A program made the translations under genes and the position numbers. Positions 18,062-30,140 of a DNA stretch of 64,000 nucleotides are shown here, one piece after another; the first letter of the stretch is position 1, and every line of letters starts with the position of its first letter. The DNA lies in sequence record NC_103192.1. One strand, given 5' to 3'. The DNA comes from a phage. The notes under the pieces were generated by a model. It was not told the DNA's origin. It saw nothing but the letters and a program-made list of their open reading frames with translations, and did not search any database.

Positions 18062-18250
18062 TACATCTCTCTCAGTACTCGATCTGTTTTTCATTTCAAA
18101 GATTGGATTTTCTGAAAATTTTTCTCGATAAATTTCTCAGTACTCGATCTGTTTTTCGTTTTCTGAATTGGATTTTCTGGAAATCGTTCCAGCTCTCGAC
18201 CTGAAATTTTTGGGGACGAAATCGATTTTTCGTTTTCAGAAATGGATTTT
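18062..18250. repeat. tandem iteron-like repeats (about 65-bp unit with TTGGATTTTCTG and CTCAGTACTCGATCTGTTTTTC cores)
   Basis: tctcagtactcgatctgtttttc at 18070 and 18137; (a)ttggattttctg(a/g)aaa at 18101 and 18167; further aaatggatt copies at 17806-17890 and 18241. Confidence 0.5.
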
Positions 18251-19659: not shown

Positions 19660-19687
19660 TTGACACGCTGCAAAATTCAAGTAAACT
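19660..19687 (+). promoter_or_regulatory. sigma70-like promoter (TTGACA-16-TAAACT)
   Basis: Preceded by A11 tract. Confidence 0.45.
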
Positions 19688-19735
19688 ATGCACAAAAGGC
19701 GGGAATGTTTCCCGCCAACACAAAGGAAAAAGATC

Positions 19736-20131
19736 ATGAATAAGAACGTACGCCGCATCATGAACGAACTGGCAAACGATGAAAAAATTATTGACATGCA
19801 TTTAGTCAACATTTGCCGCCGTTGTGTAACATATAACAACCGCGCCGCAAAAGCGCGTGAGATGAACGCAAAAGGCACCTTAAAGCCCTTTCAGGTGGTT
19901 GTAAAATCTATAACTAATGCAGCAGGCCAGGCGCATGACCACAACAACGAGAGCGCTAATATTGATCCGTCTTACGTAATGAAACGGATCCGGACTTGCA
20001 AGAATAAAGAGCAGGTGTATAACGTCATAGATTGGCTGGACTCCCTGGGCGATGTGGTTTACAATAGGTTTTCTGCAGCTATCGAGATCCAGCTTGACAG
20101 ATTGGACGGGAAAGTACTAAAAACTTATTGA
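19736..20131 (+). CDS. hypothetical protein
   Basis: Internal ATG with AAGGAAAAAGA RBS. Confidence 0.55.
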   Translation: MNKNVRRIMNELANDEKIIDMHLVNICRRCVTYNNRAAKAREMNAKGTLKPFQVVVKSITNAAGQAHDHNNESANIDPSYVMKRIRTCKNKEQVYNVIDWLDSLGDVVYNRFSAAIEIQLDRLDGKVLKTY

Positions 20132-20132
20132 G

Positions 20133-20178
20133 TTTATTTTTAGATGGCCTTGACACCAGGGCCATCAATAAAGTAAAC
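20133..20178. repeat. conserved 45-bp intergenic module, copy 1 (T-tract + palindrome GATGGCC-N10-GGCCATC enclosing TTGACA)
   Basis: tttatttttagatggccttgacaccagggccatcaataaagtaaac; near-identical at 20763 and 24499. Confidence 0.6.
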
Positions 20179-20210
20179 TAATCTCAGTTAGGCTAAAAGG
20201 AGGCTTGAAG

Positions 20211-20330
20211 ATGAGCACTACACGCCAGCACACAAAGGTAACCATCATCGTTTGCATCATTGGTTACATCCTGGCGCAAATGTTGATGGGTAGCGCCAAT
20301 GATTTCGCAAAATTTTTCTTAAACTTCTAA
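20211..20330 (+). CDS. small hydrophobic peptide (39 aa), not in ORF track
   Basis: AAAGGAGG 7 nt upstream of ATG; MSTTRQHTKVTIIVCIIGYILAQMLMGSANDFAKFFLNF. Confidence 0.45.
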   Translation: MSTTRQHTKVTIIVCIIGYILAQMLMGSANDFAKFFLNF

Positions 20331-20358
20331 TTGACAAGCTAACTTAAATCAGTATAAT
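20331..20358 (+). promoter_or_regulatory. sigma70-like promoter (TTGACA-16-TATAAT)
   Basis: Perfect hexamers. Confidence 0.6.
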
Positions 20359-20410
20359 ACTAAGCACATAAACGGGAAAACTTCCCAGAACACCAAAAGG
20401 AGAAAACATT

Positions 20411-20761
20411 ATGAATACTTCCATCACTATGACCGCCGAAGAAAAAGCCCTGCAGATCGCCGCTCTGAAAAAACAGATTGCAGAACTTGAAGACAAGATC
20501 GACAATTTTGAAATCGACGAAGACAAACACGACGATAAATATGATGAATGGTTAGACGAGATCTACGGCGAAATCATGATCGGAAACATTTCTTTTCTTC
20601 CGTCGCGTATCCTCAAGGAGCTAGATCCTATCGCTTACCGCTGCGGATTTAGCGACTACATCGACAGCCTAGATATTGAGGACGATGAAGAATACCAGGA
20701 ATTGCAGACAGAGCTCGAAGAAGTGAAAGAGGAGCTTTCAGAGCTGGAAGAAAACGAGTAA
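20411..20761 (+). CDS. hypothetical acidic coiled-coil protein
   Basis: RBS AAAGGAGA. Confidence 0.6.
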   Translation: MNTSITMTAEEKALQIAALKKQIAELEDKIDNFEIDEDKHDDKYDEWLDEIYGEIMIGNISFLPSRILKELDPIAYRCGFSDYIDSLDIEDDEEYQELQTELEEVKEELSELEENE

Positions 20762-20762
20762 A

Positions 20763-20808
20763 TTTATTTTTAGATGGCCTTGACACCAGGGCCATCAATA
20801 AAGTAAAC
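20763..20808. repeat. conserved 45-bp intergenic module, copy 2
   Basis: Identical core to 20133. Confidence 0.6.
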
Positions 20809-20850
20809 TTTATACTGTTAACACTTAACCAATACAGAGGAGTTAAAACC

Positions 20851-21096
20851 ATGGCCGCACTAATTACCAAATATTATGCCCCTACCAACACCAAAAGCGC
20901 CCGTATCATGGTAAAAGGCTTCGGACGTAAAAAGGTGTACACCTGGGATTATTCCCTAGACATGGAAGACAACTACACCAACGCGATGACAGATTTTATT
21001 AATGAGCTGAACACGCGGATCTTGACAAATTATAAAATTACCGATATTGCCTATGTAGGGGAAGGCGGGATCTGTTTTGTCGGTATCGTCAAATAA
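20851..21096 (+). CDS. hypothetical protein
   Basis: RBS CAGAGGAG. Confidence 0.6.
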   Translation: MAALITKYYAPTNTKSARIMVKGFGRKKVYTWDYSLDMEDNYTNAMTDFINELNTRILTNYKITDIAYVGEGGICFVGIVK

Positions 21097-21099
21097 ACT

Positions 21100-21145
21100 G
21101 TTTTTTCGGTGGTCCTGGTAGCAGGGCCATCTATAAAGATAGTTT
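21100..21145. repeat. degenerate variant of 45-bp module (hairpin retained, no TTGACA)
   Basis: ttttttcggtggtcctggtagcagggccatctataaag. Confidence 0.35.
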
Positions 21146-21172
21146 ATCAACACAATGAAAGGAGAAAGTAAC

Positions 21173-21520
21173 ATGATCAGCGGGGCAAGTTTTATTATTG
21201 GCGCTATTGCTACGGCTTTAATTGTAAACAAGATCCAGGATAAAAAGGAAAGTACCGCCCTTGCAGAATATCCATTTTGGACATTCAACGATAATGAAGA
21301 TTATATTGTAAAGTATAAAAATAAAGAAGGTGACCAAGTAACACCGCGACCGATCCCGGCTTACAAAATGCAGGAAACACTGTACCGCCTGGAAGCGGGG
21401 GGCGCAAAAATTGTAGACTTTTGGGGATACGATCACACAGATCAGGAAGTTATAAAGCGCCGTATCCGGGCTATTCAGGCCAATATCGAAGTTAGTAAGG
21501 GGGGAATATATGAAGATTAA
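21173..21520 (+). CDS. hypothetical protein with N-terminal hydrophobic segment
   Basis: RBS GAAAGGAGA. Confidence 0.55.
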   Translation: MISGASFIIGAIATALIVNKIQDKKESTALAEYPFWTFNDNEDYIVKYKNKEGDQVTPRPIPAYKMQETLYRLEAGGAKIVDFWGYDHTDQEVIKRRIRAIQANIEVSKGGIYED

Positions 21521-21707
21521 TTTTGAAAAGATTGTAAAGCGATCTCATGATTCCGAAGAGCTGCCGGAACGCCGCCAGCGTAACAATAAACTGAATAAGC
21601 CAAAAAGATTTGGGAAGATCTGGCGGAATCATTATGATCGCAAATTACCGGGCCTGCTTTTGGAACGTGAACGACAGGCGGAACGATACCGCCACAAAGG
21701 CAAATAA
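21510..21707 (+). CDS. hypothetical basic protein
   Basis: 65-aa ORF. Confidence 0.45.
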   Translation: MKINFEKIVKRSHDSEELPERRQRNNKLNKPKRFGKIWRNHYDRKLPGLLLERERQAERYRHKGK

Positions 21708-21715
21708 CAACCAAC

Positions 21716-21741
21716 GCCCCGCCATTGTGCGGGGCTTTTTA
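21716..21741 (+). terminator. rho-independent terminator
   Basis: gccccgc-cattgt-gcggggc + TTTTTATTT. Confidence 0.6.
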
Positions 21742-21888
21742 TTTCTATCCTACGAATAGCGCCCCTGGTTGGCCCCACAAACGCCACAAAAGCCCCTACC
21801 TATGCAATCCCCTTTCTTAATCTGAAAACATCACCCAGGGCCGTTTTATGGCGTTAAAAATATTATTGACAGTTATTTTATTTAAAGC

Positions 21889-21917
21889 TTGACACCTTGG
21901 AATAGTCCGGATATACT
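21889..21917 (+). promoter_or_regulatory. sigma70-like promoter (TTGACA-17-TATACT)
   Basis: AT-rich UP-like region with second TTGACA 23 bp upstream. Confidence 0.6.
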
Positions 21918-21952
21918 AGCCACATCAAAGCAAGAAGGAAGGAGTAAACGCC

Positions 21953-22213
21953 ATGCGTAAATTGAAAAATTTTGATAAGGTCGATGCAGTACTAAATAAT
22001 TTTTACTACTGCAATAATAAAGCCGTTTGGTGGCGTGATAGTTCCACCGATAAAGTTAAAGCGCGCTTTCTCCAGGGGCACTGGCAAGGCCGCCCAGTGA
22101 TTAAAATCTTGGGGCAATTGGTAGCGTTTAAAAATTGCCGCCGTGTTGATGACGTTGAAGAGATTTTAAACATTTTGCGCCACAATAATTTAAAAAATAG
22201 TGTTGACAAGTAA
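21953..22213 (+). CDS. hypothetical protein
   Basis: RBS AAGGAAGGAG. Confidence 0.6.
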   Translation: MRKLKNFDKVDAVLNNFYYCNNKAVWWRDSSTDKVKARFLQGHWQGRPVIKILGQLVAFKNCRRVDDVEEILNILRHNNLKNSVDK

Positions 22214-22230
22214 GTATCAATAAGTATACT
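22203..22230 (+). promoter_or_regulatory. sigma70-like promoter (TTGACA-16-TATACT)
   Basis: Overlaps 3' end of upstream gene. Confidence 0.55.
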
Positions 22231-22285
22231 TAAACACAGGCGGGAAAACTTCCCGCCACTAACAAAGAAAATAGGAGAAAATATC

Positions 22286-22909
22286 ATGACCACCGTTAAC
22301 ATTACCACAGGTTACAATTTAGCTTTCGACGTGCTGACCGACGAACAAAAAGAAAAAGCCGTTGAAATGGTCCGAGAAAGAGAAGAACACAGCGGGGATA
22401 ACTTTTTTGCAGAAAGTGTAATTGAAGACTATAAAGAATATGTCTTTCCAGAGTATGGCCTTGAAGATACCAAGGTACATTGGTCCGGCTTTTGGTGTCA
22501 GGGTGACGGCGCGTCAATCAGTGCGGAAAACGTGGATTTAGAAAAATTCTTGCGTAAAGTCAAGTCTCTGACTAAATTTCGCTCAATTCGTCACTTGTTC
22601 GGCACAATGCACGATGGCGAACTATCCGCAAGTGTTGAGCGTGATCCATATAGCCGCTATAGCCACGAAAACACTGTAAACGGGTACATCGATACTACAT
22701 GGCTAGACCTGACCGCCAAACAAGAAGATAAAGTGGAAGATTTGGAAGAACTGATCACCGAGACGGTACGGGAGCTATCCCGCAAGGTTTACGTAGACTT
22801 GGAAGCGGCCTATTTGGAGCAATTCACATCTGAAAACCTGATCAACCTTATTAAGGACAATGATTGGCGGTTTGATGTAGATGAACATGGCGAGATGACT
22901 TTTTCATAA
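22286..22909 (+). CDS. hypothetical acidic protein (207 aa)
   Basis: RBS ATAGGAGA. Confidence 0.65.
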   Translation: MTTVNITTGYNLAFDVLTDEQKEKAVEMVREREEHSGDNFFAESVIEDYKEYVFPEYGLEDTKVHWSGFWCQGDGASISAENVDLEKFLRKVKSLTKFRSIRHLFGTMHDGELSASVERDPYSRYSHENTVNGYIDTTWLDLTAKQEDKVEDLEELITETVRELSRKVYVDLEAAYLEQFTSENLINLIKDNDWRFDVDEHGEMTFS

Positions 22910-22917
22910 ATAAAGTG

Positions 22918-22946
22918 TTGCAATAACCTAAAAACCTGCTATATTA
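22918..22946 (+). promoter_or_regulatory. sigma70-like promoter (TTGCAA-16/17-TATATT)
   Basis: Near-consensus hexamers. Confidence 0.45.
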
Positions 22947-22998
22947 AAACTCAAGGGGGCAAGACGTTTGCCCCACACAAAACAAAGAGGAAAACATT

Positions 22999-23379
22999 AT
23001 GAAAAACACTACTAAAGCTATTGACACCGTTATGTTTAACCTGGTTACCTTTCGCGAGGATATGAAAGATCTTCCACGTGAAACAGTGTGCGATCACATT
23101 GAAAACTATCGCAAACTAATCAAAGAGTTGCCTTTAAAACGTGACCAGTATGCGGCTAACGCTATGCTCAACGCCATGATCAAAAAGATGATTCAGTGTG
23201 ATTTAACCCTGGCCTATGATTATGCAGGTGGTCGTTTTGCAGTATATAATCAGCCCGTGCCTGGTATGGGCACCACCGAAGAATTGCACGCGCTCAATCT
23301 AAAACAAGACGTGTGGGATAGTATGCCTCGCGTGGTGGTGTGGGCAGAAAGCGGAAAGATTTACGGCGATAATTTTTAA
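22999..23379 (+). CDS. hypothetical protein
   Basis: RBS AAAGAGGAA. Confidence 0.6.
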   Translation: MKNTTKAIDTVMFNLVTFREDMKDLPRETVCDHIENYRKLIKELPLKRDQYAANAMLNAMIKKMIQCDLTLAYDYAGGRFAVYNQPVPGMGTTEELHALNLKQDVWDSMPRVVVWAESGKIYGDNF

Positions 23380-23391
23380 TCAAGAACAGAC

Positions 23392-23417
23392 GGCGGCATA
23401 TTTGCCGCCTTATTGTT
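23392..23417 (+). terminator. possible terminator (ggcggc-atattt-gccgcc + T-rich)
   Basis: 6-bp GC stem. Confidence 0.4.
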
Positions 23418-23445
23418 AAACAGAACTGCAAAAGAGGTACATAGA

Positions 23446-23817
23446 ATGGAATTTATTATTTTGGCTGTATTAGTTGCCTTGTTTAACGCCTGGATCGCTG
23501 GCAAGATGGGTAGATCCGCCTTTTTATGGTTTATTATATCTATTTTCCTGGGGGTGGTTGCAACTATTGTATTAGTTATCCTTGCAATTGTTGACAAGGG
23601 CGATAATAGAAAGGGTAAAGTATTTTCAGACCTGTACGACGCTCAAACGTTTGTCAACGCATATTATAGTGATCTTCCAGTCTCCCTACGCTGCAGCCTG
23701 GCACAACAAGTTTTCGATGAGGCTAAAACCAGAGATCAAGCCCATGAGATATGTTTAACTGAGGCGGATCGCCTATTTGAGAGGAATAGAAAATATGTGG
23801 GCCAACCGTTTAAATAA
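23446..23817 (+). CDS. hypothetical membrane protein
   Basis: Two hydrophobic helices; RBS AAAGAGG. Confidence 0.55.
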   Translation: MEFIILAVLVALFNAWIAGKMGRSAFLWFIISIFLGVVATIVLVILAIVDKGDNRKGKVFSDLYDAQTFVNAYYSDLPVSLRCSLAQQVFDEAKTRDQAHEICLTEADRLFERNRKYVGQPFK

Positions 23818-24040
23818 TGCCACGTTAATTAATCCCTTTAGTGAAGATTTGAAGCCAGCCGCCTGGCGTGATGGATTCAATACCGAACGCTTTATTTTCA
23901 GGCCTGATCTTGAGGAATTTTATAACAATGGATCGAACAACGACAGAGATAATTTTTCTTGTGATGTGCGTAGTGATGGTACTCCTGGGGGCCATTGTAA
24001 ACCACGTCACTACTACCAGGAGGAAAGGGGGAGACGATGA
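23795..24040 (+). CDS. hypothetical protein
   Basis: ORF with GAGGAA RBS, overlaps upstream gene. Confidence 0.35.
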   Translation: MWANRLNNATLINPFSEDLKPAAWRDGFNTERFIFRPDLEEFYNNGSNNDRDNFSCDVRSDGTPGGHCKPRHYYQEERGRR

Positions 24041-24161
24041 CACCCAAGGATAAGCCACGCACCGATAAGGCGCGCCGTGTTATGGTGTGGCTGGAGATCA
24101 TCGCCCTTGAAATATTGTTAGGCGTAGGGATGTACTTTATCGCTATAAGTAACTAAGAACG

Positions 24162-24187
24162 GCCCCCGATCATGGGGCTTATCTTTT
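24162..24187 (+). terminator. possible terminator (gcccc-cgatcat-ggggc + TTATCTTTTT)
   Basis: Short GC stem with T-rich tail. Confidence 0.45.
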
Positions 24188-24295
24188 TAAAAAATTTTTC
24201 TTCTAGGGTGTTGCAATCCGGTCCGAGATGTGGATAATGACAATCAACGGGGAGCCAATCCCCACCAACACAAAAAACCAGAAAGGAGAAACAAA

Positions 24296-24496
24296 ATGAG
24301 CAACAATATCCGCGTTATTAACTTCAAAAAAGAAGAAAAAATTGCCGTGCTGATTGACGGTCAAGAAATCTTCAAGGGCGATTATGAAGATCATCAAACG
24401 GCGATTAGTATCACTCGCGTGATCGGTTACCATAATTTCTACCCCCAAGGCGCTGAGGCAGCAGTTAAACGAATCAAAGAGATTGTAGGCCTGTAA
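24296..24496 (+). CDS. hypothetical protein
   Basis: RBS AAAGGAGA. Confidence 0.55.
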   Translation: MSNNIRVINFKKEEKIAVLIDGQEIFKGDYEDHQTAISITRVIGYHNFYPQGAEAAVKRIKEIVGL

Positions 24497-24498
24497 AA

Positions 24499-24544
24499 TT
24501 TATTTTTAGATGGCCTTGACATCAGGGCCATCAATAAAGTAAAT
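24499..24544. repeat. conserved 45-bp intergenic module, copy 3
   Basis: tttatttttagatggccttgacatcagggccatcaataaagtaaat. Confidence 0.6.
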
Positions 24545-24587
24545 TTAAACCCTGTTAAAATAATCAGTGCAAAAAGGAGTAATGATC

Positions 24588-24887
24588 ATGTTTATACCCG
24601 CCAATAATCTTTATTTCTTTGATGGTCAGATCGTAGACGGTGTGGAAGTCGAGATCACTGGATGTCAAGGCGGTCAGGCAATGATCTTTCGCAATAGTGC
24701 CTTTAACGATCAATTCATTACAATGACCATGGAAGTTAAAAAGCTGGACGATAAGAAAACGCTCATTGACTATTCCGTGAAAGATCATCCAGACTACCAC
24801 ATGATCTATGGTGATTTGTGCATTGTTGACCGTGACAAGGTGGGCGGCATTGTGATCGCTATTGTGAACGATGTTTTCTCAAACTAA
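24588..24887 (+). CDS. hypothetical protein
   Basis: RBS AAAAGGAG. Confidence 0.6.
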   Translation: MFIPANNLYFFDGQIVDGVEVEITGCQGGQAMIFRNSAFNDQFITMTMEVKKLDDKKTLIDYSVKDHPDYHMIYGDLCIVDRDKVGGIVIAIVNDVFSN

Positions 24888-25807: not shown

Positions 25808-26041
25808 ATGATGGAACAAATTAAACGCGCTGAGGCTATTAATGGCAATGTGATCTATTTTGTCAGCAAAAACGAAAAAGGCGTACCATATGCGGCGGTA
25901 ATAGTACAGCCTGACGGCAATTATTGGTTTACTGTATACGGATCTTATTCTTTCGGGCGTCCGGTGCATGATAGAATTTTGAAAGTAGCGAACCCCACCG
26001 GGAAGAATATCACGGCAGAAAAATTTTTTGAAAATAATTGA
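25808..26041 (+). CDS. hypothetical protein
   Basis: 77-aa ORF. Confidence 0.55.
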   Translation: MMEQIKRAEAINGNVIYFVSKNEKGVPYAAVIVQPDGNYWFTVYGSYSFGRPVHDRILKVANPTGKNITAEKFFENN

Positions 26042-26066
26042 CAACGTTTTAAATTAGTTTAAGATG
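26039..26066 (+). promoter_or_regulatory. sigma70-like promoter (TTGACA-16-TAAGAT)
   Basis: Shares taagatgtatcacgtagggc downstream context with promoter at 27394. Confidence 0.5.
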
Positions 26067-26119
26067 TATCACGTAGGGGCAAGCGCCCTATTAAACGCAA
26101 CAAGAAGAGGATAAACACC

Positions 26120-26368: not shown

Positions 26369-26396
26369 TTGACACTGTTTTTTATTCTGGTATAGT
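26369..26396 (+). promoter_or_regulatory. sigma70-like promoter (TTGACA-16-TATAGT)
   Basis: Consensus -35. Confidence 0.55.
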
Positions 26397-26448
26397 TTAT
26401 CACATAGGGCGGCAATAGTGCCGCTCACAACTAAAAAGGGAAATCATC

Positions 26449-27796: not shown

Positions 27797-27825
27797 TTGA
27801 CATCTGCCATGGGGTGGGGTAACAT
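27797..27825 (+). promoter_or_regulatory. sigma70-like promoter (TTGACA-17-TAACAT)
   Basis: Consensus -35. Confidence 0.45.
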
Positions 27826-27879
27826 TTATCTTGAAGGGGCAAAAGTGCCCACACAACAACCAGGAGAGAGGAAAACATT

Positions 27880-29639: not shown

Positions 29640-30140
29640 TAAGAGAAAGATAAGAAATAGTTAACAATGTAATTGTTTTACCTGTAACAATAAGGCAACT
29701 ATGCAAACGAATGGCATGGCGCGACGGAGTCGCGACATAATATAAAAGCAGTAACCATCACCCCCGTGATAGTTTGTCTGCAAACTATTAATCAGATCAT
29801 AGTTGCCTTGTAGTTAGTTAATCATGACACAATAAGCAAGGCAACTATAGATCTGCTAATAGTTGCCCTGCTTTTATATTATGTCATAGAAACACCCGAA
29901 GGGGTGACCGAAGGTCACCTGGCCTAGCCAGTGAAAGATTATTAACTTGTTAATTGTTAACTTGCTAATTGTTTTCATGCAAACGAATGTCATGGCTTAT
30001 CATATCTGCGTGAACAGTGAAACATGGAAATGATAAATATGTGAACAGTTATCCATGTAAACTATTAGACATGCAAACAATCAGGTGTGCAAAAGTGACA
30101 TAGTATGTCACCAGTATGTCATAGTATGTCAGACAAGTTT
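29640..30140. repeat. repeat-dense non-coding region (alternating GGCAACTAT/ATAGTTGCC sites, palindromes, short direct repeats)
   Basis: GGCAACTAT at 29695 and 29840, inverted at 29792 and 29862; palindrome GGTGACCgaaGGTCACC about 29905; gcaaacgaatg(g/t)catggc x2; ttaacttg(t/c)taattgtt x2; agtatgtca x3. Confidence 0.5.

Follow-up and report, generated by a model that had tools for sequence, protein, structure and literature searches.

A repeated ~55-base module of Vequintavirus phages: most likely both the promoter of the following gene and a large RNA hairpin at the end of the preceding one

Four copies of one repeat between small early genes

Phage sequence record NC_103192.1 was analysed as one stretch of 64,000 nucleotides (nt), here called the window, which belongs to the genus Vequintavirus (rV5-like; subfamily Vequintavirinae) and is 93–94% identical to many Escherichia coli myophages of ~137 kb. 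Its early region is made up of consecutive small genes on the + strand, each with a strong Shine-Dalgarno sequence (SD) and many with a sigma-70-type promoter of their own, and between these genes, all within 4.4 kb, lie four copies of the element considered here, a module of ~55 bases in which a promoter-like sequence and a hairpin share the same bases. The genes flanking the copies are ORFans of unknown function, the sole exception being a T7 gp1.1-like protein encoded at 21510–21707; this protein of 65 amino acids (aa) scores above the curated cut-off of the Pfam family PF08200 (bacteriophage T7 gp1.1), and its gene closes the operon that holds copies 2 and 4. That operon runs from a promoter at 20331 through a 116-aa gene, copy 2, an 81-aa gene, copy 4 and two further genes to a terminator at 21716.

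As a 45-mer, TTTATTTTTAGATGGCCTTGACA(C/T)CAGGGCCATCAATAAAGTAAA, the module stands on the + strand at 20133–20177 and 20763–20807 without a mismatch and at 24499–24543 with one, where 0.00 matches are expected by chance from dinucleotide-preserving shuffles, and this bears out the three near-identical copies of 45 base pairs (bp) reported in the initial annotation. The palindrome GATGGCC-N10-GGCCATC, allowing up to two mismatches, gives five matches against 0.12 expected, a degenerate copy at 21108 being among them. A repeat search groups four 51-nt copies in one family, at 20130 (copy 1), 20760 (copy 2), 21095 (copy 4, the diverged one) and 24496 (copy 3), with identities of 94, 100, 71 and 96%, respectively. 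A covariance model built from the four copies and run on the 64-kb window recovers exactly these four sites, scoring 77–83 bits on the + strand and 35–41 bits on the − strand. The placement first given, just after a stop codon and 30–45 bp before the next ribosome-binding site, has to be revised, as the upstream stop codon sits within the base of the lower stem of the hairpin in all four copies, and the SD follows 21–30 nt and the start codon 33–44 nt downstream of the 45-mer.

Copy 1 forms a two-tier hairpin at 20131–20179 (+ strand; loop ACAC; folding energy −25.1 kcal/mol, z −6.9; 83.3 bits on the + and 35.4 on the − strand) that overlaps the TGA stop of the gene at 19688–20131, and its promoter-like core, TTGACA-N18-TAAACT at 20150–20179 (+ strand), is a candidate driver of the 39-aa open reading frame (ORF) at 20211–20330. 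The hairpin of copy 2, at 20758–20813 (+ strand; −22.5 kcal/mol, z −6.7; 81.7 bits), overlaps the TAA stop of the gene at 20411–20761, with an identical core at 20780–20809 (+ strand) that may drive the 81-aa gene at 20851–21096. At 24496–24546 (+ strand), copy 3 has the loop ACAU (−23.6 kcal/mol, z −5.8; 83.3 bits) and overlaps the TAA stop of the gene at 24296–24496; its core, TTGACA-N18-TAAATT at 24516–24545 (+ strand), is a candidate driver of the gene at 24588–24887. Copy 4, at 21093–21147 (+ strand; −28.2 kcal/mol, z −8.1; 77.1 bits), folds as 13 bp, a 2x3 internal loop, 10 bp and the loop GUAG, and overlaps the TAA stop of the 81-aa gene.

The two-tier hairpin and the promoter-like core

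The dyad first described, with 7-bp arms around a 10-nt loop, is a real palindrome, but its stem is 10 bp long (GAUGGCCUUG with CAGGGCCAUC, one U.G pair included) and its loop has 4 nt. Beneath it a second, lower stem is formed between the T-rich 5' and the A-rich 3' flank, and it was this full size of the hairpin, together with the recombination and cassette shuffling described below, that the initial annotation overlooked. All four copies share a single + strand RNA fold consisting of a lower stem of 10–13 bp, a 2x3 internal loop whose longer side is the 3' one, the 10-bp upper stem and a tetraloop. Folding energies are −22.5 to −28.2 kcal/mol on the + strand (z −5.8 to −8.1) and only −12.7 to −16.9 kcal/mol on the − strand, a difference of ~10 kcal/mol that arises because G.U pairs turn into A.C mismatches. 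Despite a G+C content of 31–38%, the module windows rank in the top 0.01–0.4% of all 61-nt windows on both strands, and within a 241-nt context the pairing probability is ~1.0 for the upper stem and 0.38–0.97 for the lower stem. The covariance models of Rfam 15 gave no match at the modules (E≤1; 15–32 kb scanned).

The diverged copy is the most informative of the four. It had been described as a degenerate copy that keeps the hairpin without TTGACA, and it does indeed read CTGGTA at this position, with a dot-bracket structure identical to that of the other copies and the lowest folding energy of the four. Compared with copies 1–3, five of its lower-stem pairs are changed on both sides and three upper-stem pairs are altered one-sidedly, to or from G.U, such that 10 of the 10 upper pairs are still paired. 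When 42 copies from 12 sources (29 distinct sequences) were aligned, in an alignment that was itself fitted to the model, 92.4% of cells were paired, compared with 34–56% when the partner was slid by 1–3 columns; double changes occurred at six pairs, and the upper stem was 99.7% paired. Copy 4 exists in two haplotypes that are distinguished by an exchange of C-G to U-A. All these changes speak for a nucleic-acid hairpin that is under selection on the transcribed strand. Across eight genomes the per-site difference is 0.032–0.069 in the module cores and 0.05–0.12 in the flanking genes, while the spacers directly downstream differ by 0.11–0.22 (0.07 after copy 4), the module being more constrained, or more homogenised, than its surroundings.

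Copies 1–3 also read TTGAC(A/T)-N18-TAAA(C/T)T, which fits the sigma-70 consensus at 10 of 12 positions, and have a T-rich tract upstream; the same promoter scan called no − strand promoter at the modules. The TTGACA box itself is present in these three copies, but in most relatives the −35 reads TTGACT and in some TTGACC or TTGATT; because the varying bases are those of the tetraloop, exact TTGACA is not conserved, whereas TTGAC largely is. The modules share their −10 context, AAGTAAACT, with the neighbouring early promoter at 19660, which is the counterpart of P194 in phage rV5, and the 33–44 nt between module and start codon leave no space for another promoter. The U.G pair that gives the first T of TTGACA is invariant in copies 1–3 and is replaced by C-G in copy 4, which has no −35, and this would fit a compromise between promoter and pairing constraints.

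The case for a promoter is, in our view, strongest in phage KKE7M, a Justusliebigvirus (subfamily Stephanstirmvirinae), in which a 485-bp segment is 89.7% identical to window 20330–20813 (+ strand), that is, to the unit of promoter, leader hairpin, 116-aa gene and module copy 2. At the right junction of this segment the module, TTGACT-N18-TAAATT, stands at the exact position of an ordinary promoter, TTGCAA-N16-TAAACT, in the relative EmilieFrey, and downstream of this the two phages share the leader TATTCAT(T/C)AAGGCGGTGGAATAGCCCACCGCC, a leader hairpin, an SD and an ATG. The −10 of the module thus appears to be interchangeable, in register, with that of a resident early promoter. The promoter suggested in the initial annotation thus gains support for copies 1–3, from their consensus match, the −10 context shared with 19660 and the register in KKE7M, but does not extend to copy 4, which has no credible −35. 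Two other kinds of promoter were also considered. N4-type hairpin promoters have a 3-nt loop and are used by a virion RNA polymerase, and single-stranded DNA promoters carry their −35 and −10 boxes inside the stem; both were set aside, since these requirements do not fit the module.

Distribution, recombination and likeness to other phage cassettes

By BLAST the module is found in 120 phage records (Vequintavirus), usually at three places in each, the diverged copy escaping the count because of its differences. The covariance model finds exactly four modules in the relative Aya (complete genome, 136 kb), all in one 4.4-kb stretch. The same model gave no credible match in TH18 (another genus of the Vequintavirinae), in the Justusliebigvirus EmilieFrey or in the locus of the Phapecoctavirus ukendt, and none in 35 distant IMG/VR loci with a homologue of the 116-aa gene, and thus the element is not traceable past the genus Vequintavirus. 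It was also absent from the 185,579 bacterial species genomes of a GTDB scan. Scans of JGI metagenomes and IMG/VR brought in only Vequintavirus contigs or nothing; of seven metagenome loci with matches, four were compared with the window, and these are Vequintavirus sequence, several of them from contigs of ~137 kb. In addition, ~17–22 records labelled 'Campylobacter phage' (host Campylobacter jejuni; e.g., MG065672 and MG065644) carry the module and are >90% identical to E. coli Vequintaviruses; these are probably contaminating coliphages or mislabelled. Existing annotations disagree, in that PhagePromoter called the orthologs of copies 2 and 3 promoters in phage Gotham, two copies are labelled terminators in Murica and most genomes leave the module unannotated. 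It is not mentioned in the rV5, Certrevirus or O177 genome papers, and its sequence is in no paper of the literature searched.

Two gene cassettes lie between the clustered copies. The first (20180–20762, + strand), between copies 1 and 2, comprises the 39-aa ORF and the 116-aa gene, with the sigma-70 promoter (20331) and its leader hairpin between them, and the second (20810–21122, + strand), between copies 2 and 4, contains the 81-aa gene. The 630 bp between copies 1 and 2 are missing in magaca, ime, phiWec189 and the IMG/VR contig L041, and each junction is a single copy-1/copy-2 chimeric module. The second cassette is absent from phage 241Ecol014PP, where the junction of a 335-bp deletion is a single module with the 5' part of copy 2 and the 3' part of copy 4, the crossover lying inside the common CAGGGCCATC.ATAAAG segment. 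Chimeric modules were thus found at deletion junctions in five sequences in total, and the insert in KKE7M displaces ~450 bp of backbone that is present in its relative EmilieFrey. Being near-identical direct repeats of ~50 bp, the modules act as crossover points at which gene cassettes are deleted, kept or transplanted. Moreover, the A or T variant of the loop is mostly uniform over copies 1–3 within a genome, which suggests concerted evolution or gene conversion.

Other rearrangements in the region do not use the module. An apparent module-to-module deletion in rV5_ev146 was resolved as two deletions that end outside the modules, and in YP-6 the 207-aa gene (window 22197–22908) was lost between two ordinary promoter cassettes. 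A single copy has also been damaged in nature; the ortholog of copy 1 in Gotham (L002 2024–2079) has lost 5 nt (GGGCC) from the 3' arm of its upper stem, which abolishes the hairpin and cuts the −35/−10 spacer to 13 bp, and is thus a natural knock-out allele of copy 1 in a phage that is viable.

The closest parallel to this arrangement is the PeSL (promoter-early stem-loop), a repeated cassette of T4-type phages that joins an upstream stop codon, a stem-loop, an AT-rich tract, a sigma-70-like promoter and an SD, is concentrated among ORFans and mediates deletions, exchanges and the formation of mini-circles (Arbiol et al., 2010, PMC2839356; Comeau et al., 2014, PMC4122927). The module likewise unites an AT-rich tract, a putative sigma-70-like promoter and a stable stem-loop, starts on the upstream stop codon and finishes 33–44 nt before the next start codon in four of four copies, is clustered among small early genes of unknown function (here within 4.4 kb), and is the site of crossover in indels and exchanges between close relatives. 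Promoter and AT-rich tract are both present in the sequence of copies 1–3, copy 4 having no credible −35. In contrast, a PeSL has its stem-loop ahead of the promoter, whereas the module interleaves the two, its loop carrying the −35 and its lower stem the −10; its hairpin has two tiers and 23 bp and lacks the U-rich tail of a PeSL; and PeSLs are carried by T4-like myoviruses, while the module is found in Vequintavirinae with only four copies per genome. We therefore file the module, by analogy, as an element that may work like a PeSL and not as a member of the PeSL family. REP/BIME-type repeats are short imperfect palindromes that follow stop codons within operons and can shield upstream mRNA from 3' exonucleases. 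The module shares with them its small size, its imperfect palindrome and its repetition after stop codons inside operons, but it is phage-borne, has four copies and a promoter-like core, and has no sequence match in bacterial genomes.

Several other repeated elements were seen in the window. Ordinary early promoters (TTGACA-16/17-TATAAT-like) are followed ~8–15 nt later by a GC-rich leader hairpin, such as GGGAAAACTTCCC or GGGCGGCAATAGTGCCGC, at 19660–19720, 20331–20400, 22203–22260, 22918–22975, 24211–24270, 26038–26100, 26369–26430 and 27797–27850, and a 35-nt leader repeat (26398 and 27423) is also found in the Justusliebigviruses EmilieFrey and KKE7M. These promoter and leader hairpin cassettes form a second repeated family, which is more widespread and more PeSL-like than the module. 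Upstream of the early genes, at 18065–18250, three non-coding direct repeats of ~47–55 nt, spaced 65–74 bp apart, are iteron-like and could be an origin or a binding array. In a non-coding gap at 29780–29900 the motif ATAGTTGCC(T/C)TG occurs three times, two copies being direct and one inverted, with hairpins that are very stable on both strands (−24.6 and −26.4 kcal/mol), and this cluster could be an operator or an origin.

Possible roles of the module in transcription, in RNA and in recombination

In its architecture the hairpin of the module resembles the early RNase III sites of phage T7. Five of these, R0.3, R0.5, R1, R1.1 and R1.3, which we take to lie at the coordinates of Dunn and Studier 1983, were folded in the same way, and hairpins are found at those positions with a lower stem of ~9 bp, an asymmetric 4x5 internal loop, a GC-rich upper stem of 9–10 bp with G.U pairs and a loop of 4–5 nt. 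The T7 sites and the module are alike in being inter-cistronic hairpins present in several copies that resemble one another, with an AU-rich lower stem, an asymmetric internal loop that is longer on the 3' side, a 9–10 bp GC upper stem containing G.U pairs and a 4–5 nt loop, and the irregular two-turn hairpin with an asymmetric internal loop that marks the T7 signals is found in all four copies. As at the T7 signals, a single transcript may span the genes on both sides; the gene layout and the terminator-free stretches imply read-through, since a consensus scan that finds ordinary terminators in the region at 21716, 23392, 24161 and 25289 finds none between the upstream promoters and the modules, and the hairpin should therefore be present in read-through transcripts. 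There is no sequence likeness to the T7 sites, the internal loops differ (2x3 against 4x5), and the module contains a full promoter-like sequence within the hairpin itself. A further likeness is that the T7 record places the host-polymerase promoters B and C beside or overlapping the hairpins at R0.5 and R1. On this analogy RNase III-type processing of the module is plausible. A Keio host-factor screen with the rV5-like phage LL12 identified only lipopolysaccharide genes and is uninformative on rnc.

We propose that the module is most likely a promoter for the next gene and, at the same time, a large RNA hairpin ending the previous one. In its full form, as a Vequintavirus-specific regulatory cassette that is a compacted, PeSL-like combination of promoter, 3'-end hairpin and crossover site, we hold this proposal to be somewhat more probable than all alternatives together. 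In this proposal copies 1–3 would act at the DNA level as host sigma-70 early promoters for the next small gene, composed of a T-rich UP-like tract, the −35 TTGAC(A/T), an 18-bp spacer and the −10 TAAA(C/T)T, with the last three bases of the −35 forming part of the hairpin loop. At the RNA level a read-through transcript from the upstream promoter would fold the same 50–57 nt into the two-tier hairpin on the stop codon, which would mark and insulate the 3' end of the upstream cistron. We infer both the promoter activity and the fate of the hairpin in RNA, and for the latter our ranking, made by analogy, places RNase III-type processing that leaves a 3'-protective hairpin above a simple 3'-exonuclease barrier, and this above attenuation of upstream transcription. 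The most likely route would be an RNase III-type cut in the 3' side of the internal loop that leaves the protective 10-bp GC hairpin, as on T7 early mRNA, with a plain exonuclease barrier or attenuator as the less likely one. The more specific idea of a dual-coded 55-nt sequence, sigma-70 promoter as DNA and RNase III-type signal on read-through RNA, is offered only tentatively and is in our view rather unlikely to hold in every part.

Of the competing explanations, one that also strikes us as unlikely, if still a serious contender, is that the module acts purely in RNA, as an inter-cistronic hairpin cut by host RNase III or blocking 3' exonucleases in the manner of T7 R0.3–R1.3, the TTGACA and TAAACT matches arising incidentally from the AU-rich lower stem and from a loop sequence that fits by chance. 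This would agree with the retention of the fold by copy 4 without TTGACA, the free variation (A, U, C or UU) of those loop bases with which TTGACA ends, the much better folding of the + strand, the T7-like build and the lack of a terminator between upstream promoters and modules. However, it leaves the in-register −10 in KKE7M, the U.G pair that makes TTG in copies 1–3 and gives way to C-G in copy 4, and the −10 context identical to that of promoter 19660 without a reason, and copies 1–3 are near-identical well beyond what the fold needs, given that copy 4 tolerates 29% divergence. A PeSL-type element in which the stem-loop halts or attenuates upstream transcription and the embedded promoter restarts it is improbable to us, although the hairpin is very stable and starts at the stop codon, PeSL stem-loops terminated transcription in reporter assays (PMC2839356) and the Murica annotation points the same way. 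The initial annotation had already argued that the module is not a classical terminator, and we concur. A rho-independent terminator was rejected because the GC stem is followed 3' by AAUAAAGUAAA on the + strand and UAAAAAUAAA on the − strand, neither of which contains a U-tract, and the consensus scan misses the modules on both strands yet detects the four terminators named above. Bidirectional rho-independent terminators are similar in having a GC hairpin with complementary homopolymer-like flanks directly after a stop codon, but their order is A-tract, hairpin, T-tract, and in the module this is reversed, with the T-tract 5' and the A-tract 3', so that no U-run follows the hairpin on either strand.

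Somewhat less probable again is that the module is primarily a DNA recombination site, where a structure-specific nuclease or recombinase would act on a cruciform or single-stranded DNA hairpin extruded by the palindrome and so mobilise ORFan cassettes, perhaps in the form of mini-circles, while effects on transcription would be secondary. Three different natural rearrangements have junctions in the module, one of them into another subfamily, and the concerted loop variants and the mini-circles of PeSLs could be read in the same way; nevertheless, ordinary homologous recombination between 50-bp identical repeats accounts for the junctions, the other edge of the KKE7M insert is an ordinary promoter, the deletions in YP-6 and rV5_ev146 have their junctions outside modules, and the position on stop codons and the fixed orientation suit expression signals better. 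The least probable reading, to our mind, is the promoter with a dyad operator put forward initially, in which a dimeric phage or host protein binds GATGGCC...GGCCATC, so that the three or four genes downstream are regulated together by one repressor. The dyad does overlap the −35, copies 1–3 are near-identical and the stems are highly conserved among genomes, but in copy 4 the three one-armed substitutions (G.U, U.G and C-G) keep RNA pairing while they break the symmetry of the DNA half-sites. On account of these G.U-type substitutions and of the compensatory double changes in the lower stem, which would change both half-sites, the operator was rejected. The strong strand asymmetry of folding is also against it, 7-bp arms would put the centres of the half-sites 17 bp apart, or ~1.6 helical turns, which would be awkward for a simple dimer, and no candidate regulator was identified, the flanking genes being ORFans.

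Several points weigh against the combined promoter and hairpin that we favour. The 3' flank of the KKE7M insert may derive from copy 3, which also reads TAAATT, and not from the resident promoter, in which case the in-register fit would be partly coincidental. An 18-bp spacer and a −10 that matches at four of six positions predict a moderate promoter at best, the stringent list in the promoter and terminator table of the rV5 authors omits the site, and the literature search yielded no transcriptome of any Vequintavirinae (rV5-like) phage. Copy 4 has a hairpin but no credible −35, which shows that the element can do without the promoter, and since most promoter bases are also stem bases, conservation is not attributable to one function. 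All variation lies within one genus at ~90% identity, and independent compensatory events are few, because the alignment was fitted to the model and all its sequences come from that genus. The destruction of copy 1 in Gotham indicates that single copies are dispensable, the likeness to RNase III sites is one of architecture only, and the lack of a U-rich 3' tail makes PeSL-style termination doubtful.

If the dual-coded form of our proposal were true, cleavage in the 3' part of the internal loop and initiation a short way downstream would yield almost identical 5' ends for the following gene, and the preceding one would have a 3' end protected by the hairpin. Individual ORFans would then be insulated expression units, portable between phage subfamilies, as the transfer to KKE7M suggests. 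The module may offer a simple system for studying how one sequence meets the constraints of a promoter and of an RNA structure together, and could serve as a candidate insulated expression unit and in forecasting where natural or engineered deletions will occur. Phages of the rV5-like group are widely isolated for therapy and biocontrol, and their early transcription is essentially unstudied. For this family the finding would mean that PeSL-style cassettes extend beyond T4-like phages and can be condensed to a form in which one set of bases serves both promoter and transcript hairpin, and that these modules mark the breakpoints at which small early genes are lost, retained or moved, even across subfamilies.

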